DNA of 64,000 nucleotides from Sedimentisphaerales bacterium (GCA_030611315.1 JAUWPZ010000001.1:8640-72639); one strand, 5' to 3'; positions 3,514 through 55,510 are shown, numbered from the stretch's first letter. Numbers and translations: made by a program. Notes: generated by a model not told the origin, from the letters alone.

Positions 3514-3568
3514 GCGTCTTCATTTCCCTTGAGTTGAAGTGCCGACAATAGCTGTTCTTCTCTGCCGC

Positions 3569-4285
3569 TCAAGAAATCGGGTATCCCAGCTTCTTCCAGC
3601 TCTTCCCCCTTAGATTGACCTTGTAACCGGCATTTCCTTCCTGAACCGGTATCCTTTTTGTGAACTTGATAGCGCCGACAGGACACACCTCAAGGCAAGC
3701 CTGCTTTCCGCCGGGACCTCCCCCTTTGGGGGACCAATGATATTTAGCATAAGCACAGAGGTCGCACTTTCTACTTTTCATATCACCGTTGAAGTCTTTA
3801 TGGGGGGCGACCAGCGACCTGCTCGGCGTATATGGACACGCTTCTTCGCACAACCCACAACCGATGCATTTGGCAATATCCACGGTTCTGACATTTCTAT
3901 ATTTCGAATCAACTTCAAGCGCTCCATTCGGACACGCCTTGACACAAGCAGGGTCCACACACTGCCTGCATTGCTCGATGGTTATATCGAGCGGCCATTT
4001 CTCAAATGAGTTCTGTATTACCTGTATTCTCGATAAAGTCAGATTCGCCTGTCCCTCATGCACCAACGAACAGGCCAGCATACAGGACAAACACCCCTGG
4101 CACTTTTTGGTATCAACAAGGATGTATCCGACAGACGCCGGGATTCCATCTATCACAATATCCGATGGGGGAGAACAACTACCGAGGCCGCCGCTGACGA
4201 CAACTACCCCCGCAATTTTCAGGAAATCCCTGCGCGGGGTTTGCCCATTGCAATCCCGATGTTGTCCTTCTCGTTGTTCGCTCAT
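3569..4285 (-). CDS. Tat-signal 4Fe-4S polyferredoxin (YdhX-like electron-transfer subunit)
   Basis: It has a twin-arginine motif (RRDFLKIAGVVV) and four Cys clusters (CQGCLSCMLAC, CRQCVDPACVKACP, CIGCGLCEEACP, CDLC...CLEVCP). It sits 55 nt upstream of the AOR gene on the same strand. Confidence 0.8.
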   Translation of the reverse strand: MSEQREGQHRDCNGQTPRRDFLKIAGVVVVSGGLGSCSPPSDIVIDGIPASVGYILVDTKKCQGCLSCMLACSLVHEGQANLTLSRIQVIQNSFEKWPLDITIEQCRQCVDPACVKACPNGALEVDSKYRNVRTVDIAKCIGCGLCEEACPYTPSRSLVAPHKDFNGDMKSRKCDLCAYAKYHWSPKGGGPGGKQACLEVCPVGAIKFTKRIPVQEGNAGYKVNLRGKSWKKLGYPIS

Positions 4286-9378: not shown

Positions 9379-10491
9379 ATGACTATAAAACCGGCGATTT
9401 TGAATGTGGCGCTCCTGATAAGCGTTTTTTCGATGACAACATCGGGGTTCGCAGCGGACAAGGCCCGCCAAGCCCTGCTGCGGGACGGTTTTGCCCTGAG
9501 GGGCGTCAACGGTCAGGTCAAAAACGCCGAGGGCGGCGAGAAATGGCTGTTTGAACTCGACTCGGACCTGAGCGATGAAGAAAACGTCGTCAAGGCCGGG
9601 ACGAGTCTTCGACTGCTGCCGTCAACAACCCTGGAAAATATTACCGCCGACCTCAAAGAGCGCTCGGCCAACAATTATATGCTCTGGGGCATAGTTACAA
9701 AGTACAAAGGCAAAAACTTCATATTCCCCCTCTATTTCCTGGCGACCATCAAAGCAATCGAGCCGGAAAAACCGGTTAAAGTCCGGCCCAAACAGCAACC
9801 ACAGGAGCAGAAGGCCCCTGAGCAGCCACAGGAATCACAAGATAAATCGAGCGAGCCGAATAATGCCCCACCGGCGCAACAGAGCCAATCAAAACCTGAT
9901 GTCAGTGATGCGAACGGCATCTTGGAGATGCCGAAAGAGATACTCGAAATGCTCGATACCGGGAAAGTTGAACGCCCTGCGAAGTTAAGGCCGGCCCCGA
10001 AACCCAAAAAGCCTACTGTGCCCGATTCGAAACCGGTCGAAGAATCCAAAACCAAGCCTGAGCCTGAGCCTAAGCCTAAGCCTGAGCCTAAGCGCGAGCC
10101 TAAGCCTGAGCCTGAGCCTGAGCCTAAGCGCGAGCCCGAGCCAGAACCTGAGCCTAAGCGCGAGCCCGAGCCAGAACCTGAGCCTGCTAAAGGAGCGAAA
10201 CTAAAGCTGGACCCGATACTGGCCGACAGGACCGCCTTTCTGGTCAAACAGAAAAACGGCCGGTTTGTATTCGCGCTGGACGCCCTTGGGCGAAACGTGC
10301 AGGAGATTTCTCTGCGGCTGCTGCCGTGCGAGGCACTGGAGCTGACCGAGCTGAGACAATCCGCCGCGACCGAGCCTTTGCTATTCAAAATAGCAGGAAT
10401 CAGGACTAAATATAAAGGTAAACATTATCTGCTGCTGCAGAAGGCAACGCGAGTATATAGCCATGGCAACTTCAGGGCGCCAATTTTGTAA
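9379..10491 (+). CDS. Secreted protein with two homologous ~90-aa end domains and a Pro/Glu/Lys-rich linker
   Basis: A signal peptide ends ...[10 protein letters not shown]- and C-terminal segments share SLRLLP...LE...TKYKGK. The central linker is a PEPK low-complexity region. Confidence 0.7.
10053..10185 (+). repeat. In-frame hexanucleotide (CCTGAG/CCTAAG) and ~36-nt tandem repeats
   Basis: These repeats encode [42 protein letters not shown] within the 9379-10491 CDS. Confidence 0.85.
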
Positions 10492-19474: not shown

Positions 19475-21124
19475 CTATATTTGAGCCTTTCCTTTGACAA
19501 ATTCCACTGTCCAGTCGATCCTCGCCAACGTTTTTTCTTTGCCTAACATTTCCACGGAATCAAATATCGGTGCACTGATGGTACTACCGCAAATCGCGAC
19601 ACGCAGCGGCTGGGCGACCTTGCCCAAACCCACCTGTTTTTCCTCGGCCAAGGAACGCAGTATCGTTTCGATACGCCCGTGAGTGAAATCGTCCGTTACA
19701 GCAAACTTCTCGCGCACCTCAACCAGGACGGCCAGGCCGTCATTTTTCAAAAGAACCTTTTCGACAGCCTTGTCATCATACTCAATTTCATCCCTTTTCA
19801 AAAAGAGAAATCTGCTCTTTCGCTCGATATCAGCCAGCGTCCGGGCACCTTCACAAATTTTAATCAATCTTGAAAGAAGCTCATCGTCGGCTGCAAGCAC
19901 GGGAGAACCAATCAGCTTCAAGTAATCCTTAAAATGCTGAATCAGTTTTTCCGGTGAGGCCATCCTGATGTGCTCGGTATTAAAGGCCAGCAGTTTTTTG
20001 CGGTCGAACAAACTGTTGGATTTGGTCAAACGCGAAAGGTCAAAAGACTCGAGCAGTTGTTCAACCGTCATAATCTCGCGGTCATCCCCCGGGTTCCAGC
20101 CAAGCAGAGCAAGGAAGTTGACGACCGCTTCGGGCAGATAGCCGCTCTTGAAGAAATCCACGATATTGATTTCCGGCAGTTGAACACCGAGAAATTCGGC
20201 CATCGCGTCGATGCTCACCATATCGGGCGTTGTCTTGCCACTTATGAAATCGGCGAACTCTTCGGCGCTGATGTTCCCAATCCCGGCAAGGGCCTCGGCG
20301 CTTATGTCCTGCATAGCCTTGATGGCATTTCGCATGGCCTTCGGCCGCTCGCGCTTGGAGAGCTTTCCGCCGGTGTCGCTGACGGTAACGGACATGTGCG
20401 CGTATTTCGGCGGCGGGGCATCGGCAAACAATGCCCGCCAGAGCGCCTGCTGGCCCGGCGTGTTCATCAGGTGCTCCTGGCCGCGTATGACGTGCGTAAT
20501 CCGCATCAAAAAGTCATCCACCACACACGCGAAGTTATAAGTCGGAAAGCCGTCGCTTTTTTGAATAATAAAATCGCCTATCTCGCCGGGCGCAAAAGTG
20601 ATAACGCCGCGGACCACGTCCCGGACCACCAGCGGCTCGCTGCGAGGAACGGCAAAACGGACCGTAACCGACCTGCCCTCGGCGCGGGCCTTGGCGGCGT
20701 CCGATTCGTCGGGGAACTGCTCCGGCCGGGGATACGCAAAGCCCTTCTTCTCGGCCTCGGCCCGCCTGCGAAGCGCATCGAGCTGCTCGGGCGTATCGAA
20801 GCAATAGTAGGTCTTTTGCTCATCGAGCAGCTTTCGTACGTACCTGTCGTAGATATCCCGGCGCTGCGATTGCAGATAGGGGCCGCTCGGCCCGCCAACC
20901 TCCGGGCCCTCGTCCCACTCTATCCCGAGCCACCGCAAATCGTCCATCACCTGCTGCATGGCCGTGGGGGTATTGCGCTTCTGGTCGGTATCTTCGATTC
21001 GCAGAATAAATACGCCGCCGGCCCTCCGGGCCAGGAGCCAGTTAAAAAGGGCCGTCCGAGCCCCACCAACGTGCAAATAACCCGTCGGAGACGGCGCAAA
21101 ACGCGTTACTACCTGTTCAGACAT
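19475..21124 (-). CDS. gltX: Glutamate--tRNA ligase
   Basis: It has RFAPSPTGYLHVGGARTAL (HIGH) and KLSKR motifs. Confidence 0.93.
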   Translation of the reverse strand: MSEQVVTRFAPSPTGYLHVGGARTALFNWLLARRAGGVFILRIEDTDQKRNTPTAMQQVMDDLRWLGIEWDEGPEVGGPSGPYLQSQRRDIYDRYVRKLLDEQKTYYCFDTPEQLDALRRRAEAEKKGFAYPRPEQFPDESDAAKARAEGRSVTVRFAVPRSEPLVVRDVVRGVITFAPGEIGDFIIQKSDGFPTYNFACVVDDFLMRITHVIRGQEHLMNTPGQQALWRALFADAPPPKYAHMSVTVSDTGGKLSKRERPKAMRNAIKAMQDISAEALAGIGNISAEEFADFISGKTTPDMVSIDAMAEFLGVQLPEINIVDFFKSGYLPEAVVNFLALLGWNPGDDREIMTVEQLLESFDLSRLTKSNSLFDRKKLLAFNTEHIRMASPEKLIQHFKDYLKLIGSPVLAADDELLSRLIKICEGARTLADIERKSRFLFLKRDEIEYDDKAVEKVLLKNDGLAVLVEVREKFAVTDDFTHGRIETILRSLAEEKQVGLGKVAQPLRVAICGSTISAPIFDSVEMLGKEKTLARIDWTVEFVKGKAQI

Positions 21125-21618: not shown

Positions 21619-21949
21619 TGAGACAATGTATTTACAGGATATCACCGGGTGCTGCGAAAAGATTTTGCGGTTCACTCAGGGTCTCAGCCAGTCCGATTTG
21701 ATACAGGACGAAAAAACCCATGATGCAGTCGTTCGCAATCTTGAGATTATAGGCGAAGCTGCCAAGCATATTTCCGATGAGCTCAGAGTCCAACTGCCGG
21801 ACGTCGAATGGCGAAAAACCGCGGGAATGAGAGACATGCTCGCTCACGCCTATTTCGGAATTGACAATGATATTTTGTGGGATGTTGTGCAAAACAAAAT
21901 CCCGCAATTAGGCAAATCAATAAGTGTGTTTCTCAACAAATCAAGGTAG
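21608..21949 (+). CDS. hepT: HEPN (DUF86) toxin
   Basis: It carries the R-x4-H motif RDMLAHAYF. The ATG overlaps the MNT stop by 11 nt. Confidence 0.8.
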
Positions 21950-21957
21950 AAGAAAAA

Positions 21958-23679
21958 GTGCCAAACACCGAACAGGATGACAGCAACAAGCAAAACACTG
22001 ATAATACCCGGCTTGATTTTGTTCGCCAGATTGTAGCGGAAGATTTGAAGGCCGGCAAATGGGACGGGCGGGTCGTTACGCGCTTTCCGCCCGAGCCAAA
22101 CGGCTATCTGCATATTGGACACGCTAAGAGTATCTGCCTTAACTTCGGCATCGCAGCCGAATTCGGCGGACAATGCCACCTGAGATTCGACGACACCAAT
22201 CCGGAAAAAGAGGAGCAGGAATACGTCAACTCCATCATCGAGGACGTTCGCTGGCTTGGCTGGGACTGGAATGAACATTTGTATTACGGCTCGGACTACT
22301 TCAAGCAGATGTACGAGTACGCCGTGCAGCTCATCAAAAAGGCCAAGGCCTACGTCTGCGACCTGACGGCCGAGCAGACAAGAGAGTATCGCGGCACCCT
22401 CACCGAGCCGGGAAAGAACAGCCCTTATCGCAGCCGCTCCATCGAGGAAAATCTCGACCTATTCGAGCGGATGCGGGCGGGCGAATTCCCCGACGGCTCG
22501 CGGACCCTGCGGGCGAAAATCGATATGTTACACCCCAACCTGAATATGCGCGACCCTGTTATGTACCGCATCCTCCACGCGGCCCATCACCGCACGGGCG
22601 ATAAGTGGTGCATCTACCCGATGTACGACTGGGCGCACGGGCTCGAAGACTCCGTCGAAAAGATTACCCACTCGATATGCACGCTCGAATTTGAAAATCA
22701 TCGGCCGTTGTACGACTGGTTCCTCGACGAACTGGACGTCTATCACCCCCGGCAGATTGAATTCGCACGACTTAATCTGACCTACACCGTGATGAGCAAG
22801 CGCAAGCTCCTGCAGCTCGTACAGGCCGGCCACGTCAACGGCTGGGACGACCCGCGGATGCCGACCATAGGCGGCCTTCGCAGACGAGGCTATTCGCCGC
22901 AGGCCATCCGGGAATTCTGCAAACGCATCAGCGTGAACAAGTTCAACAGCACCGTCGATATCGCACTGCTCGAGCACTGCCTCCGGGAAGACCTCAACAA
23001 GACCTCCCCACGCGTGATGGCCGTGCTTAGGCCCCTCAAAGTCATCATCGACAACTTCCCCGAAGGCCACGTCGAACAGCTCGACGCCGTTAATAATCCG
23101 GAAGACCCCGCCGCCGGCACGCGAAAGGCTCCCTTCTCGCGGGAGCTGTATATCGAGCGGGAAGATTTTATGGAGGACCCGCCGAAGAAGTTCTACCGCC
23201 TGGCACCCGGACGTGAGGTTCGGCTGCGATATGCGTATTTCGTTACGTGCAGAGACGTGGTCAAGGACAAAGACGGCCAAATAATCGAGCTGCATTGCAC
23301 GTATGACCCGGCCACGCGGGGCGGGGACGCTCCGGACGGACGCAAGGTCAAGGCAACACTGCACTGGGTTTCAGCCGCGCACGCCCTCGAAGCCGAGGTG
23401 CGATTGTATGATAACCTCTTTAACAGGGAGAATCCCGACAATGTGCCCGAAGGCGCCGACTTCAAATCCAACCTGAAGGCAAACTCGCTGGAAACGCTCA
23501 CCTCCTGCCGAGTCGAACCGTCCCTTGCCGGCGCCGAAGCGTCAAGTCGATACCAGTTCGAGAGGCTCGGCTATTTCTGCGTCGATTCGGACAGCTCAAA
23601 AGACAAGCTCGTATTCAACCGGACCGTACCCCTGCGCGATACGTGGGCCAAAATCCAGAAAGCACAGAAGAAAAAATAG
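21958..23679 (+). CDS. glnS: Glutamine--tRNA ligase
   Basis: It has [18 protein letters not shown] and VMSKRKL motifs. The likely start is GTG 21958, just after the HEPN stop. Confidence 0.92.
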
Positions 23680-40723: not shown

Positions 40724-42730
40724 TCAATTCTTCCCTAAAGGCCGGTATTCCGCCCTCAGGAAGACACGGTTGGTCCACCGGCAAAACCACCGGCCGTACA
40801 GCATCTCCTCGCCGGGGCACTGCCGGTCAAGCCGAAAAACACTGTTCTTGCGCCATGCAGTGATCTCTTCGGCAATTGCCTCTGCCTGCTCTTCGGGTAG
40901 TTCAAGCCGGACCACCTCAAATGGGTCGGCGTCCAAGTCATAAGCGTACGCTATTTTTGTCGTGGGGTTGTAAAAGAGCTTGTGATTGCCCTCAACAAAG
41001 CCTGCAGGCCCCTCATGCATCCAGCCCGAGAAATAGACCTTGCGGGCCCGCGGAGGTTGCGCCAATATATCATGGCCGTCAAAATCGCCGTCTTTTATCT
41101 CGAAGCCCAGCAGTCCCAGAAGCGTCGGCGTCAAATCGACAGAACTGACAGCTTCAGCAACTTTGGCGCCAGGCTGAACTGAGGACCCGGCTCGCAAACA
41201 AAAAGGGATACGCAGCACCTCCTCGAACACTATCCTTTCGTGTCCGAGGAGCCCATGCTCGCCGAACGCCTCGCCGTGATCACCCACGACGCAAAAAACA
41301 GTCTTGTCCACAAGGCCCAATCTGTCAAGCTCCCCGTCCAGCGCTTTTAAGAATCCATCAGTGTAAGCAATGGACTGCTTATAGCGGTCAATCGGCTCGT
41401 CGGCAGGCTCGCCATACCACTCTGGAACCTCGTACGGGTCGTGAGTAACCGAGCAAAGGGCCGTCAAAAAAAATGGTTTGTCGTCCCGTTGTATCCACTC
41501 GATGATGTATTTTAGCATCCTGAACTCATCACAGGCCAGATAACCCAAAAAGCCGTTTGGGTCGGGCAAATCGTCTCTCGACCAGAACTCATCAAAGCCC
41601 AAATTGTGGACCAGCCCGGGCCGCGACTCAAAATTCCCTTTCGCTGATTGAAAAAACGCCGTGCGATAACCCAGTTCTTCTCGAAGGGCCGTTGCAAGAC
41701 TCGCATAAGGTTTGACTGCCGGAACCGCTTCAGCAAGGTCCTCGGATGCCGAAGGAAATTGTCCCGTCAAAAGCGCAAACAATGCTTTCGTGGTATGGGT
41801 CACCGAAGAACGGGCGTTTGTGAATTCAACTCCCTGCCCGGCCAGCTCCGCCAGAAACGGCGTCAGGTCATTCGCCTCTGGTCTTTCAAGGCCAACCGTG
41901 CTATCCAGGCCGGTCCCAGCCAGCGAAGTGTACCTGTACTGTACGCCCTCGAGCACAACTACCAGCACGTTTTGTCTTGTCGGTCGCGGCTTCAATGCGA
42001 GCCGCACCTGATCAAAGTAGGGGACCTGCCGCTTCGACTCCTCGAATCGGCGGCGAAAAAGACTTACAACCGCTTTATACTGGGCATTATACCGCATCCC
42101 CGTTGAAGCGATGTGCGGCGAGCCGCGATGTTCTGTCACGCCGCGAATTATAACGGCCAGGAAGATAACAGTAAGAGTAATAAGTATTTTCTTGGCAAAG
42201 CGCTGGTGGTTGTAATTTGGCAGCACTGGCCTTACTAAAACACAAAAGAAAAACGTAAGCGCTACGGCACTTGGCGCCAGCAGTGCCACGGTGGACTTCG
42301 GCGCCGCCGCAAGATTAGAACCAATTATGCCCAGTGAGTTAATAGGGTCGCGAAGTAAAGGTAAAAGGACAGTTGGTAAGACTTGTGTCCCGGTTCTTAT
42401 CAGCCAGCCTGCGTTTATAACCGACCACGTACACACAAGAGCTGCGAAAACAGTAACCGCCCGGACAATCCACCGGCGAGGCCGGCAAAAACAAATAGTC
42501 GCCAAGATTACCTCAATCCCTAACAATACAGATATATCAGAAAGAACCCAGTCAAAGTGTTGGTTCGCAAGACTGCAACGAAGAGAGTGGAAGAATTTAA
42601 CCACCAGAGTACAAAAGATAGCGCTGAACATAATAACAGTATAAGCGCGAGGAGCTAAAAGGTTATACAGCCGGTAAATAGACAAAACGTCTCTTGGCCC
42701 CTTTCTGAATTTTGCTTGCTTAATACCCAT
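40724..42730 (-). CDS. LTA-synthase/phosphoglycerol-transferase-like membrane sulfatase-fold protein
   Basis: About 5 N-terminal TM helices are followed by an alkaline-phosphatase/sulfatase fold (VVLEGVQ, VVGDHGEAFGEHG). Confidence 0.75.
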   Translation of the reverse strand: MGIKQAKFRKGPRDVLSIYRLYNLLAPRAYTVIMFSAIFCTLVVKFFHSLRCSLANQHFDWVLSDISVLLGIEVILATICFCRPRRWIVRAVTVFAALVCTWSVINAGWLIRTGTQVLPTVLLPLLRDPINSLGIIGSNLAAAPKSTVALLAPSAVALTFFFCVLVRPVLPNYNHQRFAKKILITLTVIFLAVIIRGVTEHRGSPHIASTGMRYNAQYKAVVSLFRRRFEESKRQVPYFDQVRLALKPRPTRQNVLVVVLEGVQYRYTSLAGTGLDSTVGLERPEANDLTPFLAELAGQGVEFTNARSSVTHTTKALFALLTGQFPSASEDLAEAVPAVKPYASLATALREELGYRTAFFQSAKGNFESRPGLVHNLGFDEFWSRDDLPDPNGFLGYLACDEFRMLKYIIEWIQRDDKPFFLTALCSVTHDPYEVPEWYGEPADEPIDRYKQSIAYTDGFLKALDGELDRLGLVDKTVFCVVGDHGEAFGEHGLLGHERIVFEEVLRIPFCLRAGSSVQPGAKVAEAVSSVDLTPTLLGLLGFEIKDGDFDGHDILAQPPRARKVYFSGWMHEGPAGFVEGNHKLFYNPTTKIAYAYDLDADPFEVVRLELPEEQAEAIAEEITAWRKNSVFRLDRQCPGEEMLYGRWFCRWTNRVFLRAEYRPLGKN

Positions 42731-43183: not shown

Positions 43184-43213
43184 TTGACAGCTTAGTTAAG
43201 CAGGCAACAATAT
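43184..43213 (+). promoter_or_regulatory. Putative marR promoter with embedded inverted repeat (candidate operator)
   Basis: TTGACA lies at 43184-43189, with a CAATAT-like -10 about 18 nt downstream. The inverted repeat GCTTA-GT-TAAGC (43190-43201) sits in the spacer. Confidence 0.45.
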
Positions 43214-43251: not shown

Positions 43252-43755
43252 ATGACGCTTGAAGATGAATTAGGCCTGCAAAAACCGGTGGCCTTGCTGG
43301 GCCACAAGGCTCTGTTGAGCATGTGCTATACAGCTTCACGTTTAAGAAAAAAGGCCGGCGAATTCTTCCGCCCTTTCACTCTTACAGACGTCCAGTTTAA
43401 CCTTATGATGCTCCTGAAACACCAGAGCGGTAATAAGAAGGGGTTAAGTCAGGTACAGCTAAGCAACATGATGCTTGTCAACCGTGCGAATATAACCTCG
43501 CTCGTGGATCGGATGGAGACAGCGGGCCTTGTCGCCCGGACGCCTGCGCCGTCTGATAGAAGGACGAATATAATAAAGCTGACCACCCGGGGCAAAAAGC
43601 TGCTTGAGAGGGTCGAGCCGATGTACGCCAGGGAGGTAGAAGGAATAATGGCCGCCCTAAAAGAGCCTGAACAGAAAAAACTGATAGCAATGCTAGAAAA
43701 AATAAGGTCAAACATCGGTGATTCAAATGGGAAAAAGAAGGCTCCGAAAACGTAG
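43252..43755 (+). CDS. MarR-family transcriptional regulator
   Basis: It has a winged-HTH segment (LSQVQLSNMMLVNRANITSLVDRMETAGLVARTPAPSDRRTNIIKLT). An AAGGAGA RBS lies upstream. Confidence 0.88.
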   Translation: MTLEDELGLQKPVALLGHKALLSMCYTASRLRKKAGEFFRPFTLTDVQFNLMMLLKHQSGNKKGLSQVQLSNMMLVNRANITSLVDRMETAGLVARTPAPSDRRTNIIKLTTRGKKLLERVEPMYAREVEGIMAALKEPEQKKLIAMLEKIRSNIGDSNGKKKAPKT

Positions 43756-43793: not shown

Positions 43794-45308
43794 ATGAGCA
43801 CAGAGCAATGGACATGTAGGTTGACCGGCGCTGCCAGCGGATTATTGCTGGCTATTCCATATTTTTGGCCGCTTGCGGCACCGTTACAATTAGTAGCCCT
43901 GCTTCCGATTTTCTACCTAGGTTCTCGCCGGGCGACCACCCGCCGACAGATACTTATAGCCGGTGCTTATATGGGGATTTTATATGTGATGCCCCAAGCT
44001 ATCTTGCTTCGGATGCCTGCCTGGATTACGGTGGCCCTGTTGTTGGAGCTAACTATTTTAATGACTGTTTTTGCCTGCTGTTGCCACAGGATTCTTGCAG
44101 GCTCAACAGTGGCAGGCGCGCTGGCGGTGGGGGCCTCGCTGGTTGTGCTTGACTGGGTGAATATTACTGCGGTTCCTATATGGAGCATGGCGCAGTCGAT
44201 TGTTCGCCCGTGGTCCCGATATCCGAGCTTGATTTCATTCGTTTGTGTGACCGGCCTTACCGGTATTGCGTTTCTGTTGGGCACATTACAGGGACTGTTC
44301 ATAAACATCACTGGTTGCCCGAAACGGCGATATCGCTCGCTTATTGCGATTGTTTTCATTGTTTTGGTTTTCGGAGGGGCCAATGTGATTGTTCGATACC
44401 CCAAGTCGGCGGGTGAGCTTAAGGTTGCGGCGATAGGTTGGACAGATGGCGGCCCTGGGGATAGTGCCGACACTTCTTCTCCGGCGGGTTTCGATTCTTT
44501 ATATGCAGGACCAATAGCAAAAGCGGCTGGGCAGGGGGCACGGCTTATTGTTTCGCCGGAACTGGGCTTCTATTGCGGGGCCGGAACTCGTGAAAAATGG
44601 CTCGAGCGGTTTCGGGATGTTGCGAGTCACCATAATGTTTTTCTTGCTATCGGATTTTTCAGCGGCGCGCGACAGGAAAACCGCCTTTTGTTCATGGGTC
44701 CCGACGGTCGGGTGATGAGCGAATATACTAAGACGCACCTTACTCCATTTGAAGACTTCCGCAAGGGCAACGGCGAGCTGGCAATCATTGATGTTGATGG
44801 AGTGCAAATTGGCGCTATGATTTGCCAGGATGACAATTTTACGGACATATCGCGCCGCTATGGGAACAAGGGCGTTTCTTTGGTGGCGGTTCCGACGCTG
44901 GATTGGTCAACTGTGAAAAGCGCCCACTTACAAAGTAGTATTCACCGCGCTATCGAGTCGCGCTATGCGGTTGTCCGCGCTGGAATTAATGGGATAAGCG
45001 CAATTATTTCGCCGACGGGCGAGGTTATTGATAAAATGGATCATTTAGAGAAGGGCCCCGGAATTATCATTGCTGATGTTCCTTTGTATTCAGGCAGAAC
45101 GCTCTTTAGCATGGCCGGCCATTGGCCGGTCTTGCCGAGCGTTGTATTCCTTCTGGCTTATTTAGCCAAAGGCTTTTATACAACAAGACTGCATGGCAAA
45201 CTCGACACAGGGTGTTCTGAGGGAGATATTGAACAGGGCAACGAACCAGCCCTGGAGCAGAATAGCGAAGTAAGGCCGGCTGGGCCGGAAGGATTGTGTC
45301 TCGTTTAG
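43794..45308 (+). CDS. Apolipoprotein N-acyltransferase-like membrane CN-hydrolase
   Basis: About 6-7 N-terminal TM helices are followed by a nitrilase-superfamily domain. The E/K/C triad candidates are VSPELGF, KTHLTPFED and AMICQDD. There is a C-terminal TM helix. Confidence 0.7.
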   Translation: MSTEQWTCRLTGAASGLLLAIPYFWPLAAPLQLVALLPIFYLGSRRATTRRQILIAGAYMGILYVMPQAILLRMPAWITVALLLELTILMTVFACCCHRILAGSTVAGALAVGASLVVLDWVNITAVPIWSMAQSIVRPWSRYPSLISFVCVTGLTGIAFLLGTLQGLFINITGCPKRRYRSLIAIVFIVLVFGGANVIVRYPKSAGELKVAAIGWTDGGPGDSADTSSPAGFDSLYAGPIAKAAGQGARLIVSPELGFYCGAGTREKWLERFRDVASHHNVFLAIGFFSGARQENRLLFMGPDGRVMSEYTKTHLTPFEDFRKGNGELAIIDVDGVQIGAMICQDDNFTDISRRYGNKGVSLVAVPTLDWSTVKSAHLQSSIHRAIESRYAVVRAGINGISAIISPTGEVIDKMDHLEKGPGIIIADVPLYSGRTLFSMAGHWPVLPSVVFLLAYLAKGFYTTRLHGKLDTGCSEGDIEQGNEPALEQNSEVRPAGPEGLCLV

Positions 45309-45347: not shown

Positions 45348-48300
45348 ATGAAAAAAGCAAAGATTGATAAAATAGACTTGTTTGTTGGTTTTGATGTCGG
45401 GAGTAGTTTCATCCATTATGCGGTTCTTGATGGGGATAGAAAAGTCGTATTTTCACCTGCGCCGATAATGCACTTTGCTAATCCCATCGGAGCAGTAAAA
45501 GAAGCATGGCGGGACATCACGAAAAAGCTCGGCAAGGCCAACATAAGGAATACCGCCTTTACAGGAAGCGGCGCCGAATCTTTCCCCAGGGTTCTGAAGG
45601 GCGTAACTTACGTTTTTGACAGCGTGGCTATTCCCAAAGGGGTGGAGGCAACACAGCCGGCGGCAAAGTACATATTCCACATAGGGGCAAAAGACTCGTA
45701 CTTCTTCAATCTAAAAGAAGTCAACGGCAGGAAGATTATCCAGGAATGGAAAACGGGCACCAAGTGCGGAGGCGGCTCCGGAACGCTGATAGAAAAGCAG
45801 TGCAGAAGATTGTTTGAGGGCCAGGTCCCCAATCCAAAACTAAAAGACACCGCAAAGGCAAAAAACGAGGCCGAAAAAGAAAAAATCAGAGTTAATAACC
45901 GCAAAAAACTACAGGGAAGACTTGAAGAAATGTACCGCAGGGCCGAGGAAGAAGCGGAGAAATCAAAAGAGCCGAGCGAGTTCCTCGCCAGATGCGGCGT
46001 TGTTATTCAATCCGATTTGATACACAAGCAAAACGAGGGCGCGACAAGGGAAGATAATTTAGCCGGGCTTTTTAAGACGGTCGCAAGAAATTTCAAGATT
46101 GACGTCCTCGGCGCAAGGCAGATCAACAACACCGGCGATGGTGCTGTCGCAACCGGTGGTGTTATGGCCAATGCTCTTATAAGGAAAAATCTGGAGGAAT
46201 TTCTCGGAATTTCCATAACCAGGCCCGAGCATTACCACAACATAGCGGCCGTGGGCGCAGCGGCGAAGGGTATAGAGGAGAACAACAGCGTTGTCTTCGA
46301 TGCCGAACAGCTCGACAAGGTCGCCCGGTACAGCCGGGAGAAAAGGCAGTACGGCCCAGCTCTTTCACAGTGCCTCGAAAATGTAAATGAAAAAAGCCAA
46401 TCCCTGGAAGAAGAAATACAGGAGAAAACGGAAGTAGTGCTCGGGATAGACGGAGGAAGCACTACGACAAAAGGGGCTTTGGTTGAGTTAAAAACAGGCA
46501 GGCTCCTCGATAAACTTTATATTAAAACCCACGGGAATCCGGAGCAGTCTCTAAAAAACGTCTTAAAGTACCTGAGCCGGCACAAAGACAGGGTTATTGT
46601 CAGGGGCGTTGGTGCTACCGGTTCTGCGAGGAAGCTGTACGAGAAGATTTTAGTCGGCAAGAAGAAGGCCGAGCGGTTGGCACAACAATCGATTGAAATC
46701 ACGGACAAAATAACCGATGAAATTACCTGCCACGCTCTTGGCGTTAAGTATTGCAATCCGGAGGTTGACACCATTTTCGAGGTGGGCGGCCAGGACATGA
46801 AGTTCACCAGTTTCGCCAAAGACGGAACGGTCAAAGAGGCGAAAATGAACTATAGCTGCCAGGCCGGCTCGGGACAGACCCTCGATAATATGGCCGACGT
46901 GATAAATCTGAACGTGGAGAATACCCTGCAGGCCGCCGCGCTTCGGGCGGACAGGGTCCCGATAATCGATTCGACCTGCGGCGTTTTTATGGAGATGGAT
47001 GAGAACAGGCTCATCGCCGAGGGCTTCAGCAAAGATGAAATCGCCGCCGCGATAATTCGAGGGACGGCCGCGAGTTATTACTTTAAGTTTGTTGGCGGCG
47101 CTCAGCATGTCGGAGAAAAATGCTCAGCCCAGGGCGGCCCGCCTCTGGGAAAAGCCTTTCTCGCCGCACTTGCCCAGGTAACGGAAAAACAAATAGAAGC
47201 CTATCCTCACAGGGAGATGTTCGGCGCATGGGGCCAGGCCCTGGACATTATTGAAAACATAAAACGCCTGGACGAGAAGGGCAAAAAGCATGAATCCGCG
47301 TTCAGAGGGTGGGGCCTGGTAGATATGCCTTTTGAAAAGCAGAAGATTTCCTGCCGGGAGCTGTTCAAGGAAAAGACCTGCGGCGTCAGAGATTGCCAGC
47401 TCGAAGTGTTTTCCATCGAGGATGATAAAATAATCACAGGGGGCTTCTGTCCCAGGGGAAATTCGGAGTCGGTCAAAAAACCGAAAACCAATTATGTTGA
47501 GAAATACCATAAAATATTCGAAAGGCACTTTAAGCTTCAGGGGGCCTTGCTGAAAGAAATATCCTCTACGAAGATAGACAGAAAATCGGTAAAAACCGTC
47601 GGCGTTAAAAGGAGCACCGCAACGCTTGGCGAGAAAGGAATCTGGAGCGCCGCCCTTTTGAGAAGGCTCGGCTTTTATCCTGTGATATCGCCGAGAAGTG
47701 ATAAGGAAATCGCGAAAATCGGAGTCGATAATTCGAGAACGGAGTTTTGTATAGCGAGGAAGCTCGCAACCGGACACGCCTCGGTATTGAACGCCGAGCC
47801 GAATATAGAGTACTTGTTTAATCCGAGTTTTATCGAGCAGAGAAAAGACGACCCCCCGGACCTGAAATACTGTATCTACACGGAGTCCGAAGGCTATATC
47901 CTCAACGATGTCCTATCCCTCGATAAGAGCAAGCAGATAAATCCAATCCTGCACTTCGGAGATGTGCCGCTTCTTGTTCGTGAATTAAAAAAGGAGTTTC
48001 GTCGATTGGGATTCGGGCTCACGAATAGACAGATAACAAATGCAATTCGGTGCGCAGAGAAGGCCGAGAGCGAATTCAAAGATGAGCTTTATAGAGAGGG
48101 CGATAAATTCCTGGACAAAATCGAGAAAGAAGACATAAAGGCCTACGTCGGCATTGGAAGGGATTACGTCCTGCTCGACCCCGAGGCAAGCTCGAACTCG
48201 GGAGCTATGTTCTCTCAGATAAGGGGATTGGATTACATACCGCAGCTCTTTTTGGAGCATAAATTCGCTGATATAGACCTTGGTGATGTCGTGGAGAACG

Positions 48301-49937
48301 AGTTTTGGGTGCAGAGCGTGAAGATTCTTCAGGCCAATTTGTTTGTGGCGCAGCATCCTAATTTGTTTGCTATAAGAATGATGAACTTCGCCTGCGGCCC
48401 GGACAGCCTGAAAATTTACCAGGAAGAAAAAATCCAGCAGGCGGCGGGCAAGCCCGTCCTTGTTTTGTTGACGGATGCGCAAACCAATAACGCCCCCTTT
48501 GTAACGAGGACCGAGGCCCACGAGAGGGTCGTAAGCCAGAGCAGGCGCAGAGACGTGAGAATCGAAAGAATAAAAAAATATTCGAACGACGGCAACGAAA
48601 AGAGAATATGGCTCATCCCGTATATGGGCAACAGCAGCTTCGTCGGGGCCGCGGGAATAAGGCACTTCGGCGTAAAGAGCCAGGTCTTGCCGACCAACAC
48701 GCAGAGAGGCTACGAGATAGCAAGGAAGTACATCTACACGGAGGTTTGCCATCCCCTTAAGGGAGTTGTCGGCGATGCACTTGCGTTCCTCGAAAGCCAG
48801 ATCGAGGCGAAAGGCAGGCAGTATGTTGAAGATAACTATCTTGTTATGCTCCCGACAACGAGCGGCCCATGCAGGTTCGGAAAGTATGTGGAGGTGCTTA
48901 GAGATTTTATGAACCGCGAAGGGCTGGAAAAAGTTCCGGTCGTGGGCCCATCTTCGGAAACGGATTATTTCGACATACCTTTTTCAGACGATTCCGGCTC
49001 ATCTCCGGGAATGAAAATGCAGAAAATACTGTTCAAGGGAATGAAGGCGTCAGACTTGCTCGAGGATATTACCTTGAGATTTCGTCCGTACGCTGAAGAT
49101 AAGAGCAAGGTGGATGAATTAAAAAAGCAGAGAATGGGCAGGCTGGAAAAAGTTGTGGAAAAGGGCGCCAAAATGGACGACATCCTTGAATGGGGAAGAA
49201 AAACGGTCTCCCTGTTCAAAGCCGCCAACCCGCAAAATCACGAGAGATTCCCTCTTGTTCTTTACATAGGCGAGATTTATATGAGGCAGCACGACCCTTA
49301 TACTAATTTTGTAATTGAGCGGCTGGAAGATAAGAATCTGGAATTGGTGAGGGACCCGGTAACTGATTGGCTGGACTATGTCAACCAGATGAACCAGAGA
49401 AACTCGAAAAGGGACATAGGATTAAGGCTTAGAGAATTCAACTTGAGCCGGTTGATGAAGGTGCTGAGAAAATACGCCAAGTCTTTCATCAAGGGGAAAT
49501 ATATGTCAACCGTTGAGCGGAAAATAGCCGAGCCGTTTCACGAAGTGCTCTCCGGCAGACACGCCCTTCCGAAGCCGATAGAAATAATCGAAACTCTGGA
49601 AAAGCAGCACGAAGGTCACGGCAACATCGAAGGCGAATCACCGCTGAGCACCGGAATAGCTTATCATTTTATGCACGATTTGACCAGGCCCGAAAACGGC
49701 GCCTATATATCGGGAATATTCCACGTGGGCCCTTTCACCTGCATGCAGGAAGGAGTCGCAACGGCAAAAATAGAGGCGATGGCCAAGGAGCTGAGAAAGA
49801 AAAAACCGGACCTGGTATTCCCAATCATACACGCCTTTTTCGGCGATTCGCCCAGCGCAAATCTCGATTCGGAAATCGCGGTTTTCACAGAGCAGTGTTA
49901 CCAGAAACAAGAAATATTGAAAGAAAAGTACGGATGA
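45348..49937 (+). CDS. Fusion of two BcrAD/BadFG activase ATPase modules with a DUF2229 / 2-hydroxyacyl-CoA-dehydratase-like half (PlsA/PlsR- or Ger-like)
   Basis: Module 1 spans aa ~1-310 (GFDVGSS, KCGGGSGTLIEKQ, ARCGVVIQSDL). Module 2 spans aa ~363-640 (GIDGGSTTTKG, SCQAGSGQTLDNM, STCGVFMEMDE). The C-terminal ~880 aa carries NFACGPDS, SGPCRFGKY and GPFTCMQE. Confidence 0.7.
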   Translation: MKKAKIDKIDLFVGFDVGSSFIHYAVLDGDRKVVFSPAPIMHFANPIGAVKEAWRDITKKLGKANIRNTAFTGSGAESFPRVLKGVTYVFDSVAIPKGVEATQPAAKYIFHIGAKDSYFFNLKEVNGRKIIQEWKTGTKCGGGSGTLIEKQCRRLFEGQVPNPKLKDTAKAKNEAEKEKIRVNNRKKLQGRLEEMYRRAEEEAEKSKEPSEFLARCGVVIQSDLIHKQNEGATREDNLAGLFKTVARNFKIDVLGARQINNTGDGAVATGGVMANALIRKNLEEFLGISITRPEHYHNIAAVGAAAKGIEENNSVVFDAEQLDKVARYSREKRQYGPALSQCLENVNEKSQSLEEEIQEKTEVVLGIDGGSTTTKGALVELKTGRLLDKLYIKTHGNPEQSLKNVLKYLSRHKDRVIVRGVGATGSARKLYEKILVGKKKAERLAQQSIEITDKITDEITCHALGVKYCNPEVDTIFEVGGQDMKFTSFAKDGTVKEAKMNYSCQAGSGQTLDNMADVINLNVENTLQAAALRADRVPIIDSTCGVFMEMDENRLIAEGFSKDEIAAAIIRGTAASYYFKFVGGAQHVGEKCSAQGGPPLGKAFLAALAQVTEKQIEAYPHREMFGAWGQALDIIENIKRLDEKGKKHESAFRGWGLVDMPFEKQKISCRELFKEKTCGVRDCQLEVFSIEDDKIITGGFCPRGNSESVKKPKTNYVEKYHKIFERHFKLQGALLKEISSTKIDRKSVKTVGVKRSTATLGEKGIWSAALLRRLGFYPVISPRSDKEIAKIGVDNSRTEFCIARKLATGHASVLNAEPNIEYLFNPSFIEQRKDDPPDLKYCIYTESEGYILNDVLSLDKSKQINPILHFGDVPLLVRELKKEFRRLGFGLTNRQITNAIRCAEKAESEFKDELYREGDKFLDKIEKEDIKAYVGIGRDYVLLDPEASSNSGAMFSQIRGLDYIPQLFLEHKFADIDLGDVVENEFWVQSVKILQANLFVAQHPNLFAIRMMNFACGPDSLKIYQEEKIQQAAGKPVLVLLTDAQTNNAPFVTRTEAHERVVSQSRRRDVRIERIKKYSNDGNEKRIWLIPYMGNSSFVGAAGIRHFGVKSQVLPTNTQRGYEIARKYIYTEVCHPLKGVVGDALAFLESQIEAKGRQYVEDNYLVMLPTTSGPCRFGKYVEVLRDFMNREGLEKVPVVGPSSETDYFDIPFSDDSGSSPGMKMQKILFKGMKASDLLEDITLRFRPYAEDKSKVDELKKQRMGRLEKVVEKGAKMDDILEWGRKTVSLFKAANPQNHERFPLVLYIGEIYMRQHDPYTNFVIERLEDKNLELVRDPVTDWLDYVNQMNQRNSKRDIGLRLREFNLSRLMKVLRKYAKSFIKGKYMSTVERKIAEPFHEVLSGRHALPKPIEIIETLEKQHEGHGNIEGESPLSTGIAYHFMHDLTRPENGAYISGIFHVGPFTCMQEGVATAKIEAMAKELRKKKPDLVFPIIHAFFGDSPSANLDSEIAVFTEQCYQKQEILKEKYG

Positions 49938-50206: not shown

Positions 50207-50689
50207 TCAGTTTATTTTCTTTAGCAGCTCTTTTCTGGCCTGGACTCGAAGCTTGGCGTTTTCGTAGCGTCTCTTTTCCTGCTCTGTTTCGGCCAGTATC
50301 GCGGGGACCGGTGTCGGCTTCTTATTCTCGTCCAGCGCCACAAACGTCAAATGCGCAGTCGTGGCTATGGCCTTGCGGCCGCTGTATGGCTCTTCCCTGA
50401 TGACCCGGACGCCGACTTCCATTGACGATCGGCTGACGTAATTTACGCTGGCCTTGAGGGCGACGTGGTCGCCGATTCGGATGGGCTCCTTGAAGGCGAG
50501 CGAGTCGATACCGGCGGTAACGACTTCCCTGCCGCAGTGTCTCTGTGCCGCCATTGCCGCCACCATATCAATCCACGCCATAATCACGCCTCCGAACGCC
50601 GTGCCGTGAGGATTGGCCTGATGGGGCATAAGTAAATATCTTGTTTCTACCGAGCTTTGGCTGGGGCTTTTGCCCTTTTCATCTTTCAT
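50207..50689 (-). CDS. Acyl-CoA thioesterase (hotdog fold, YciA-like)
   Basis: It has the MPHQANPHGTAFGGVIMAWIDMVAAMAA motif. Confidence 0.8.
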   Translation of the reverse strand: MKDEKGKSPSQSSVETRYLLMPHQANPHGTAFGGVIMAWIDMVAAMAAQRHCGREVVTAGIDSLAFKEPIRIGDHVALKASVNYVSRSSMEVGVRVIREEPYSGRKAIATTAHLTFVALDENKKPTPVPAILAETEQEKRRYENAKLRVQARKELLKKIN

Positions 50690-54232: not shown

Positions 54233-55510
54233 ATGAGAACCGTAGCGATTGTCAATCAAAAAGGTGGTTGTGGCAAGACGACTGTATCGATAAACCTGGC
54301 CAGCGCCCTTGCCGGCTTGGGCCAGAAGATACTGCTCGTCGATATGGATCCGCAGTCCCATTGTGCGGTTGGCCTTGCCGTGCCCGAAGAGCAGATTGAG
54401 CAGAGCATCTACGATGTACTGATAAGCAGAAGCAGAAACGAGCCGATTAGGCTGGCGGAAATGCTTTGGCAGATCAGCGACAAGCTGGAGCTGGCGCCTG
54501 CAAGCATAGACCTTTCTGCGTTCGAGCAGCAGATGGCCGGACTTGCCGAACGTGAGAGTTGCTTGAAAAATGTCCTGGACGAAGTAAAGAGCGAATATGA
54601 CTACGCAATAGTCGATTGCCCTCCCGCCGTGGGGCTGCTGACCTTCAATGCTTTAAGAGCGGCCACCGATGTTATCGTCCCCGTCGAGACCGGCTACTTT
54701 GCCCTCCACGGGCTCAGCAAGCAGCTCGAAACCTTGAGCATACTTTGCAAACGATGCACGCAGCAAGTCGATGTCAGGGTCCTGGCGAGTATGTATGATA
54801 TAAGGACAAAGATGGCACGGGAGATTCTGGCGGAATTGCGAGACCACTTCTCCGACATAATGTACGATACAATCGTTAATTTCAATACTAAAATCAAAGA
54901 GGCCTCCAGCTTCGGCCAGCCCATCAGCGAATACGATTCCGCCAGCAAAGGCCGGAAGGATTTTCAGGCACTGGCCGAAGAAATTTTAGGCTCACAGGCC
55001 GAACAGCAGCGCCATGAAATCGTCAACTCACTGGCAGGCCAGCTCGAATCCATCAGCGCCACCGCCGATGAGCTGCTGCAGGCGGCGAAAACTCCTATAC
55101 AAGGCGTTCCTGCCCCGCAACAAACAGAGCAGCCAATCCCAACGGAACAACCAATCCCAGTACAGGACATCAAAACCCGGAATCCTGAAGAACCGGAGCC
55201 TGTAAGTATCGACACCAAGCTGTCCGAGTATTACGGCGTCAACCAGATGAATGATGCCGTGGTGTTCGTAACGCTCTACCCGCGAGCCGAGAGCGTGCAG
55301 ATTGCCGGCGACTTTAATAATTGGCAGCCGTTACATACGCAGATGCACAAGGTGGGCAGCGGCGGCGTCTGGCAGACGAAGATAAAGCTCCCTCAGGGCA
55401 AATATCGCTATCGGCTGGTTGTTGACGGCCAGTGGCAGCAGGATCCGTATAATGAAATGGCCGAATTGAATCCATTCGGCGGATTTAACTCGGTCGTCGA
55501 GGTAAAATAA
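54233..55510 (+). CDS. ParA/Soj-like ATPase fused to C-terminal CBM48/AMPK-beta-like glycogen-binding domain
   Basis: The N-terminus has the deviant Walker A NQKGGCGKTT. The C-terminal ~85 aa read VVFVTLYP.AESVQIAGDFNNWQP..M.K...GVWQTKIKLPQGKYRYRLVVDGQWQQDPYN. Confidence 0.75.
   Translation: MRTVAIVNQKGGCGKTTVSINLASALAGLGQKILLVDMDPQSHCAVGLAVPEEQIEQSIYDVLISRSRNEPIRLAEMLWQISDKLELAPASIDLSAFEQQMAGLAERESCLKNVLDEVKSEYDYAIVDCPPAVGLLTFNALRAATDVIVPVETGYFALHGLSKQLETLSILCKRCTQQVDVRVLASMYDIRTKMAREILAELRDHFSDIMYDTIVNFNTKIKEASSFGQPISEYDSASKGRKDFQALAEEILGSQAEQQRHEIVNSLAGQLESISATADELLQAAKTPIQGVPAPQQTEQPIPTEQPIPVQDIKTRNPEEPEPVSIDTKLSEYYGVNQMNDAVVFVTLYPRAESVQIAGDFNNWQPLHTQMHKVGSGGVWQTKIKLPQGKYRYRLVVDGQWQQDPYNEMAELNPFGGFNSVVEVK

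Follow-up and report, generated by a model that had tools for sequence, protein, structure and literature searches.

A single-chain activase-reductase of the broad PlsA/Ger family in Sedimentisphaerales, a candidate ether-lipid enzyme from a deeply divergent clade

Introduction

A stretch of 64,000 nucleotides from a Sedimentisphaerales bacterium (GCA_030611315.1, JAUWPZ010000001.1:8640-72639; hereafter the window) contains one large gene, at positions 45348 to 49937, which raises the question of what kind of radical enzyme its 1529-amino-acid (aa) product is and on which substrate it would act. An earlier note on this DNA, written from the sequence alone, read the gene as a fusion of a double activase with an enzyme of the 2-hydroxyacyl-CoA dehydratase/benzoyl-CoA reductase (HAD/BCR) type, and named it a candidate for ether-lipid synthesis resembling PlsA/PlsR or Ger. 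The domain architecture, ligand cysteines and fold relationships described below place the protein in the PlsA/Ger family in the broad sense, and reduction of a glycerolipid ester is its probable function. Its sequence belongs to a deeply divergent clade.

Domain architecture of the 1529-aa protein

An uninterrupted open reading frame (ORF) with an ATG start and 1529 codons was found on the plus strand. The gene and its parts are as follows.

45348..49937, plus strand: complete PlsA/Ger-family gene of the BBD architecture; intact ORF, two PF01869 modules and PF09989, more than 2300 homologues
45384..46262, plus strand: Act1, activase module 1 (aa 13-305); PF01869, phosphate-1 motif GFDVGSS, C140 and C216
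45810..45983, plus strand: Lys/Glu-rich charged segment (aa 155-212) separating the Act1 cluster cysteines; partly a clade-specific insertion
46440..47243, plus strand: Act2, activase module 2 (aa 365-632); PF01869, GIDGGSTTTKG, C504 and C544
47352..47450, plus strand: Cys4 linker mini-domain; C669, C678, C683 and C701 invariant
47565..48548, plus strand: Red1, reductase domain 1 (aa 740-1067); DUF2229 and NFACGPDS tail, triad C801/C842/C1016
48549..49934, plus strand: Red2, reductase domain 2, the PlsR equivalent (aa 1068-1529); paralogue of Red1, triad C1134/C1175/C1465

The two complete ASKHA modules that had been proposed for this single chain were both recovered by Pfam. Act1 matches PF01869 over aa 13-305 with 42.4 bits and Act2 over aa 365-632 with 91.4 bits (gathering score 31.5). 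PF09989 (DUF2229) matches aa 752-958 with 113.8 bits (cut-off 29.4), and the whole protein scores 148.6 bits against NCBIfam TIGR00241 (acyl-CoA dehydratase activase; cut-off 125.4). Judged by these scores, the Pfam and NCBIfam matches are not chance results. Sequence searches against the Protein Data Bank (PDB) agree with the assignment of the modules to the HgdC/BcrAD-type activators. Act2 matches HgdC (1hux, E = 4.6e-21) and HadI (4eht, E = 7.1e-19) by phmmer, and in the Act1 region the PlsA/Ger family profile matches MbdP (9gai_C, E = 1.3e-39). Among PDB sequences this profile retrieved activators only, with no catalytic-subunit chain and no chain of the double-cubane-cluster protein (DCCP).

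The earlier note had described the remaining ~880 aa as similar to DUF2229 and to dehydratase D-components, and had named PF01869, PF09989 and PF06050 for profile searches. The first two profiles are present, and the DUF2229 assignment stands. PF06050 has no match in the protein even at E <= 10, and membership of the HGD-D component family was rejected on this basis; kinship with D-components is seen at the level of fold (see below). In relatives, PF06050 appears as sub-threshold matches only, of 50-75 aa and 17-25 bits (cut-off 28.4), located at the NFxCGPDS and PFxCMPG segments. No Pfam family was found in the last 528 residues, even at E <= 10, and Red2 taken by itself has no Pfam match. 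Profile-profile alignment of Red1 with Red2 (hhalign) gave a probability of 98.4% and an E-value of 6e-15, with the three cysteines of each domain pairing up; the catalytic part is thus duplicated internally, in the manner of HgdA/HgdB or BcrB/BcrC.

Motifs, conserved cysteines and the Act1 insert

All nine motifs quoted in the earlier note, including both phosphate-1 motifs and the cysteine motifs, were located in the translated protein. GFDVGSS lies at aa 14-20 and GIDGGSTTTKG at aa 366-376. The activase cysteine motifs are KCGGGSGTLIEKQ (aa 139-151, with C140) and ARCGVVIQSDL (aa 214-224, with C216) in Act1, and SCQAGSGQTLDNM (aa 503-515, with C504) and STCGVFMEMDE (aa 542-552, with C544) in Act2. 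The catalytic half carries NFACGPDS (aa 1013-1020, with C1016), SGPCRFGKY (aa 1172-1180, with C1175) and GPFTCMQE (aa 1461-1468, with C1465).

Alignments of 32-76 diverse family members identified 14 family-invariant cysteines, all of which are present in the 1529-aa protein. Across 76 sequences no variation is seen at the four activase cysteines (C140, C216, C504 and C544), and the linker cysteines C669, C678, C683 and C701 are likewise invariant across 76 diverse members. The triads of Red1 and Red2 are also invariant across the family alignments. In the phmmer alignment, C504 and C544 fall on the two cysteine motifs of HgdC, whose cysteines are the ligands of the [4Fe-4S] cluster bridging the HgdC dimer. 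C140, C216, C504 and C544 are the predicted ligand set for one bridging [4Fe-4S] cluster. The Cys4 linker probably binds a metal or an Fe-S cluster.

The note had also reported a Lys/Glu-rich insert of ~60 aa at about aa 155-212. The charged stretch is real, with 48% K/E/R/D compared with 29% across the whole protein, but the length was overestimated. The C140-C216 spacing of 77 residues compares with 39-41 for most family members and 56-77 within the protein's own clade, so that the net insertion amounts to ~36-38 residues. The insert is modelled by AlphaFold2 as a long helix (aa 174-204; predicted local distance difference test score (pLDDT) ~87-96). It is a clade-specific feature, predicted to be helical.

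Predicted structure and fold relationships

The two halves were modelled separately with AlphaFold2. The model of aa 1-660 has a pLDDT of 91.4 and a predicted template modelling score (pTM) of 0.83, and its best Foldseek match in the PDB is HadI (4eht_A; TM-score normalised to the target (TMt) 0.86, root-mean-square deviation 2.6 Å). HgdC, MbdQ/MbdP and the DCCP reductase DCCP-R (7yyl_E) were also matched. The model of aa 640-1529 has a pLDDT of 89.2 and a pTM of 0.88; in it, the Cys4 linker forms a small beta-hairpin region with a lower pLDDT of 62-77.

For the catalytic half (C-terminal 890 aa), the top match is DCCP (7yyl_A, E = 7e-5, probability 1.0), followed by BzdN/BzdO of 8s02 (E = 3e-4 to 7e-4, probability 1.0). 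These are the only significant PDB fold matches, as those past rank 7 are noise (E >= 0.016, probability <= 0.44). By its modelled fold, the catalytic half is related to the catalytic components of the HAD, BCR and DCCP systems at the superfamily level only. The idea that one chain combines a pseudo-dimeric activator with its own HAD/BCR-like catalytic part is supported by the Pfam matches, the cysteines, the DCCP and BzdNO folds, and a domain boundary at aa 1067/1068 that coincides with the border between two separate proteins in Fusobacterium: when aligned with the split system, PlsA ends at aa 1067 and PlsR begins at aa 1068.

Relatives and phylogenetic placement

Homologues number more than 2300, the nearest being 96% identical. 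Among the best 120, identity is 74-96% and length 1525-1618 aa; their source assemblies are those of Planctomycetota, Sedimentisphaerales and Phycisphaerales. At least 573 relatives were retrieved from the GTDB species genomes; the best 80 are almost throughout from planctomycete metagenome-assembled genomes (MAGs), with 61-79% identity. Next, at 46-48% identity, come MAGs of a Synergistaceae and a Thermotogota member and 'Bacterium M3-1'. A search that started from the Thermotogota copy brought up cultured carriers as well: Acetomicrobium flavidum, Defluviitoga and two strains of Petrotoga. When the catalytic half was searched against 1.84 billion cluster representatives, its own cluster matched at 72% identity, a handful of others at 30-43%, and ~70 further full-length representatives of ~1360-1440 aa at 25-30%.

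Some database labels need care. Copies with 67-76% identity occur on contigs labelled Chloroflexi, Cloacimonadota, Clostridia or Acidobacteriota (L012, L023, L050, L055 and L079), for which mis-binning or generic labelling is more likely than gene transfer. Many planctomycete MAGs are labelled 'Pirellulales' although their relatives are Sedimentisphaerales.

In neighbor-joining trees, proteins from Sedimentisphaerales/Phycisphaerae, Synergistota and Petrotogaceae form a well-separated clade (bootstrap 50/50), to which the handful of clusters at 30-43% identity also belong. The main family stands apart and contains proteins from Brocadiia, Elusimicrobia, Aerophobetes and Zixibacteria; a Brocadiia homologue (P0149) is placed there, outside the Sedimentisphaerales clade. 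The single-gene PlsA of Listeria and PlsA+PlsR of Fusobacterium form a further clade (bootstrap 50/50). These PlsA anchors were taken from Listeria and Fusobacterium chromosomes recorded as plasmids in PLSDB, where several 'plasmid' records (L086, NZ_LR134399.1; NZ_CP030101.1; and others) are chromosomes or large chromosomal pieces, one example being a 2.9-Mb Listeria monocytogenes record. The protein formed no cluster with the characterised enzymes of aromatic or 2-hydroxyacyl-CoA type, and the catalytic half did not prove unrelated to D-components; either outcome would have spoken against the earlier note. Its ether-lipid candidate is upheld as a broad member of the PlsA/Ger family, with the lipid function being our inference.

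A catalytic half can also occur without activase modules. A protein of 857 aa (P0126) is 37% identical over aa 651-1526 and recurs at this length on contigs of up to 30 kb. Other catalytic-half-only representatives are ~650-860 aa long, and some shorter ones are fragments of full-length proteins.

Proposed function and alternatives

We consider the protein to be a self-contained, ATP-driven Fe-S radical enzyme of the PlsA/Ger family that would reduce a glycerolipid ester to an ether, and give this reading a probability of roughly 0.6. PlsA/PlsR and Ger, the only experimentally characterised members of the architecture, both act on glycerolipid esters (PMC13159169, PMC12838417). No conserved operon partner was found across 85 related loci, to which all neighbourhood counts below refer, and the neighbours in Synergistota and Thermotogota are unrelated; the enzyme thus has no obligatory partner gene, which fits a self-contained activator plus reductase.

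We infer cluster binding, electron flow, a lipid substrate and a product type (alkyl, alkenyl or other). In the proposed mechanism, the enzyme would be oxygen-sensitive. The two N-terminal ASKHA modules would pack as a pseudo-dimer and hold one bridging [4Fe-4S] cluster through C140, C216, C504 and C544. ATP hydrolysis would push a low-potential electron from this cluster into the catalytic half, possibly via the Cys4 linker site. Red1 and Red2 would be placed like HgdA/HgdB or BcrB/BcrC, each with a three-cysteine [4Fe-4S] cluster, and would reduce the acyl-ester carbonyl of a glycerolipid through a ketyl-type intermediate. The product, formed under anoxia, would be a membrane lipid of the alk-1-enyl (plasmalogen) or the alkyl ether type.

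Several observations weigh against a glycerolipid ester as the substrate. The protein shares 22% identity with Listeria PlsA and ~26-27% with the bulk of the family, and it sits in a separate clade without a characterised member. Its likeness to the Ger proteins of Thermotoga maritima and D. alkenivorans is judged from published architecture, the named anchors of the trees being the PlsA proteins of Listeria and Fusobacterium. Alkyl and alkenyl product types cannot be read from sequence (PMC11868695, PMC13274423). A literature search for lipid data on carriers of the clade (Petrotoga, Sedimentisphaera) found none. The commonest neighbour is a YciA-like acyl-CoA thioesterase, which could indicate a CoA-ester substrate. 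In the window it is encoded here:

50207-50689, minus strand: YciA-like 4HBT acyl-CoA thioesterase, convergent to the large gene

Alternatively, this kind of self-activating machinery for radical chemistry could act on an acyl-CoA, another soluble (thio)ester or an aromatic compound, the clade being a functionally distinct offshoot. Such a shift would agree with the deep split of the clade from both PlsA and the main family, with its Act1 insert, and with the replacement of CAAGTGSF by KCGGGSG and SCQAGSG. Relatives are named 'acyl-CoA dehydratase activase-related' by NCBI, a Zn-alcohol dehydrogenase lies directly upstream in Defluviitoga, and a homologue of the thioesterase is found downstream in 32 of the 85 loci. 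However, this thioesterase lies on the opposite strand at a variable distance and is missing from most loci, and the neighbourhood contains no CoA-transferase, CoA-ligase, fermentation or aromatic-degradation genes. Moreover, all invariant residues of the catalytic half, including T1053-R1054 and both Cys triads, are common to the lipid-acting family, and no characterised member of the DUF2229 architecture uses a CoA ester. We regard a non-lipid substrate as the main alternative, somewhat unlikely on balance. A related proposal, that the Sedimentisphaerales/Synergistota/Petrotogaceae clade is a third functional type with another regiochemistry (e.g., an sn-2 ether), another lipid class or a non-lipid ester, seems unlikely to us; on this reading, the Act1 insert may alter activator docking or regulation.

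A fusion of a DCCP-like, ATP-dependent small-molecule reductase with its own DCCP-R would explain why DCCP ranks first among the Foldseek matches of the catalytic half and why DCCP-R matches the activase modules. The DCCP match has a TM-score of only 0.46-0.48 on the target and an identity of 11-12%, however, and the family profile matched no DCCP chain at the sequence level. BzdN/BzdO match nearly as well, which indicates a superfamily fold and no specific relationship. In DCCP, all six cysteines for the [8Fe-9S] cluster lie in one chain of ~420 aa, whereas the six catalytic cysteines here are divided 3 + 3 between paralogous domains of ~330 and ~460 aa. This alternative is very improbable. 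The reading as a defunct relic or as a chimera of faulty assembly, for which no point in favour was found, is effectively refuted by conservation, as the frame is intact, full-length orthologues with 74-96% identity in more than 100 independent assemblies keep every ligand cysteine, and the flanking genes are syntenic on related contigs.

Genomic neighbourhood

The window represents unexceptional chromosomal DNA of an anaerobe, with genes for aldehyde:ferredoxin oxidoreductase and ferredoxin, aconitase, HisD, AlaRS, RecA, GluRS/GlnRS, sulfatases and glycoside hydrolases. Rfam and tRNA scans found no RNA genes in it. Three further genes near the large gene are listed below.

40724-42730, minus strand: 668-aa protein with a C-terminal sulfatase/alkaline-phosphatase-superfamily domain; weak LtaS and EptA-like matches
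43252..43755, plus strand: MarR-family regulator (Pfam MarR)
43794..45308, plus strand: Lnt-like membrane CN-hydrolase of 504 aa, resembling apolipoprotein N-acyltransferase below threshold (Pfam CN_hydrolase; TIGR00546 (lnt) 88.6 bits, cut-off 132.9)

The MarR gene is probably the first of the large gene's transcription unit. The best sigma-70-like site, TTGACA-16-AACAAT at 43184-43211, is weak evidence. In 16 of the 85 loci, the gene immediately upstream, in the same orientation, encodes a MarR protein. Here the Lnt-like gene sits between the two, with gaps of 38-39 bp. Lnt draws on phospholipids for their sn-1 acyl chain, which is attached by the bond that PlsA/Ger enzymes modify. At this position the Lnt-like gene occurs in one of the 85 loci, that of the 96%-identical relative (L004), and the pairing may be a coincidence. 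An LtaS/sulfatase-like membrane protein is encoded divergently upstream in 28 loci; the 668-aa protein could be a lipid head-group transferase.

Other features were observed in the window and at related loci. At 1405-4285 (minus strand), the aldehyde:ferredoxin oxidoreductase gene adjoins a poly-ferredoxin gene, which fits a strictly anaerobic host. A 370-aa ORF (9379-10491, plus strand) has as its sole Pfam match the trypanosome PARP family (32 bits, cut-off 100, aa 216-273), which we assume to reflect a low-complexity acidic repeat region. A divergent pair of class Ic aminoacyl-tRNA synthetases (19475-21124, minus strand, and 21877-23679, plus strand) consists of one GluRS-like protein with Anticodon_2 and one GlnRS-like protein. 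A ParA/MinD-type P-loop ATPase (AAA_31, CbiA) fused to a C-terminal CBM48/AMPK glycogen-binding module is encoded at 54233-55510 (plus strand), and this AAA_31-CBM48 fusion is also present at the syntenic position in a related contig (L002). In 'Bacterium M3-1' (L084, 2493-4025, plus strand; with a SPASM domain) and in a complete Phycisphaerales genome (L001, 14801-15946, minus strand), the homologue has a radical SAM gene a few kb away at most.

Significance

Bacterial ether lipids and glycerol dialkyl glycerol tetraethers of the branched type (brGDGTs) serve widely as environmental and palaeoclimate markers, and little is known of the anaerobes that produce them. Anoxic sediments and digesters commonly harbour Sedimentisphaerales, nearly all of which seem to possess the gene. 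If the clade makes ether lipids, a large uncultured group of producers would be added; were the product a lipid, these planctomycetes, abundant in sediments, would have to be counted among the possible producers of ether lipids or of brGDGT precursors under anoxic conditions. The clade includes cultured members (Petrotoga, Defluviitoga, Acetomicrobium and 'Bacterium M3-1'), and its deep divergence could help to find the sequence features that decide between alkyl and alkenyl products. The outcome is a sound refinement of annotation and not a discovery.

Comparison with known systems

Among structurally known systems, DCCP (7yyl) is the best match of the catalytic half, and DCCP-R matches the activase modules. 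The resemblance to DCCP is one of fold only (11-12% identity, TMt ~0.47); DCCP and DCCP-R are separate proteins, and the 3 + 3 distribution of cysteines over two domains is a further difference. The 2-hydroxyacyl-CoA dehydratases (HgdAB+HgdC, HadBC+HadI) and class I benzoyl-CoA reductases (BcrABCD, BzdNOPQ, MbdONPQ) have in common with the 1529-aa protein the activator fold with its two cluster-cysteine motifs, the catalytic superfamily fold (BzdN/BzdO) and two paralogous catalytic subunits or domains with a Cys triad in each. They differ in being composed of separate subunits, with homo- or heterodimeric activators, and in acting on CoA thioesters.

Ger is the glycerol ester reductase, a 'modified PlsA', of T. 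maritima (Tmari_0479) and D. alkenivorans (SHJ90043); these proteins have the BBD core and yield 1-O-alkyl glycerol ethers only under anoxia (PMC13159169). The 'BBD' core is conserved in all alkyl-ether producers (PMC13159169), and the BB architecture has been heuristically tied to alkyl-ether production (PMC13274423). Ger homologues are known from the Planctomycetes-Verrucomicrobia-Chlamydiae (PVC) group (PMC13159169), specifically from Phycisphaerae MAGs (PMC11868695). Like the 1529-aa protein, Ger is a single chain with two PF01869 modules, followed by PF09989 and a cysteine-bearing C-terminal region, and the hosts of both are strict anaerobes. Ger reportedly has small C-terminal PF06050 and PF09989 segments (BBDHDDH/BBDHDHDH), none of which is seen here even at E <= 10, and the extra ~37 aa between the Act1 cluster cysteines distinguish the 1529-aa protein from it.

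PlsA/PlsR has the same order of parts, Act1-Act2-linker-Red1 and then Red2, and all ligand cysteines align. Besides the split system of Clostridium perfringens (CPE1194/1195), single-gene plsA with this layout occurs in Enterococcus, Lactococcus and Bifidobacterium, for example in E. faecalis, L. cremoris and B. longum (PMC12838417), and we found it in Listeria as well. With single-gene plsA in several genera, the fusion is unremarkable in itself. The 1529-aa protein aligns end to end with Listeria PlsA (22% identity) and with Fusobacterium PlsA+PlsR (21%), which are 46% identical to each other; validated PlsA proteins share 41-55% identity (PMC12838417). These 21-22% identities and the separate clades, each with bootstrap 50/50, rule out a PlsA orthologue in the close sense. 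The single-chain fusion, which is the normal architecture of the family, and its occurrence in the phylum are already known. The newer point is a deeply divergent clade that has its own Act1 insert and no characterised member, a novelty of modest extent.

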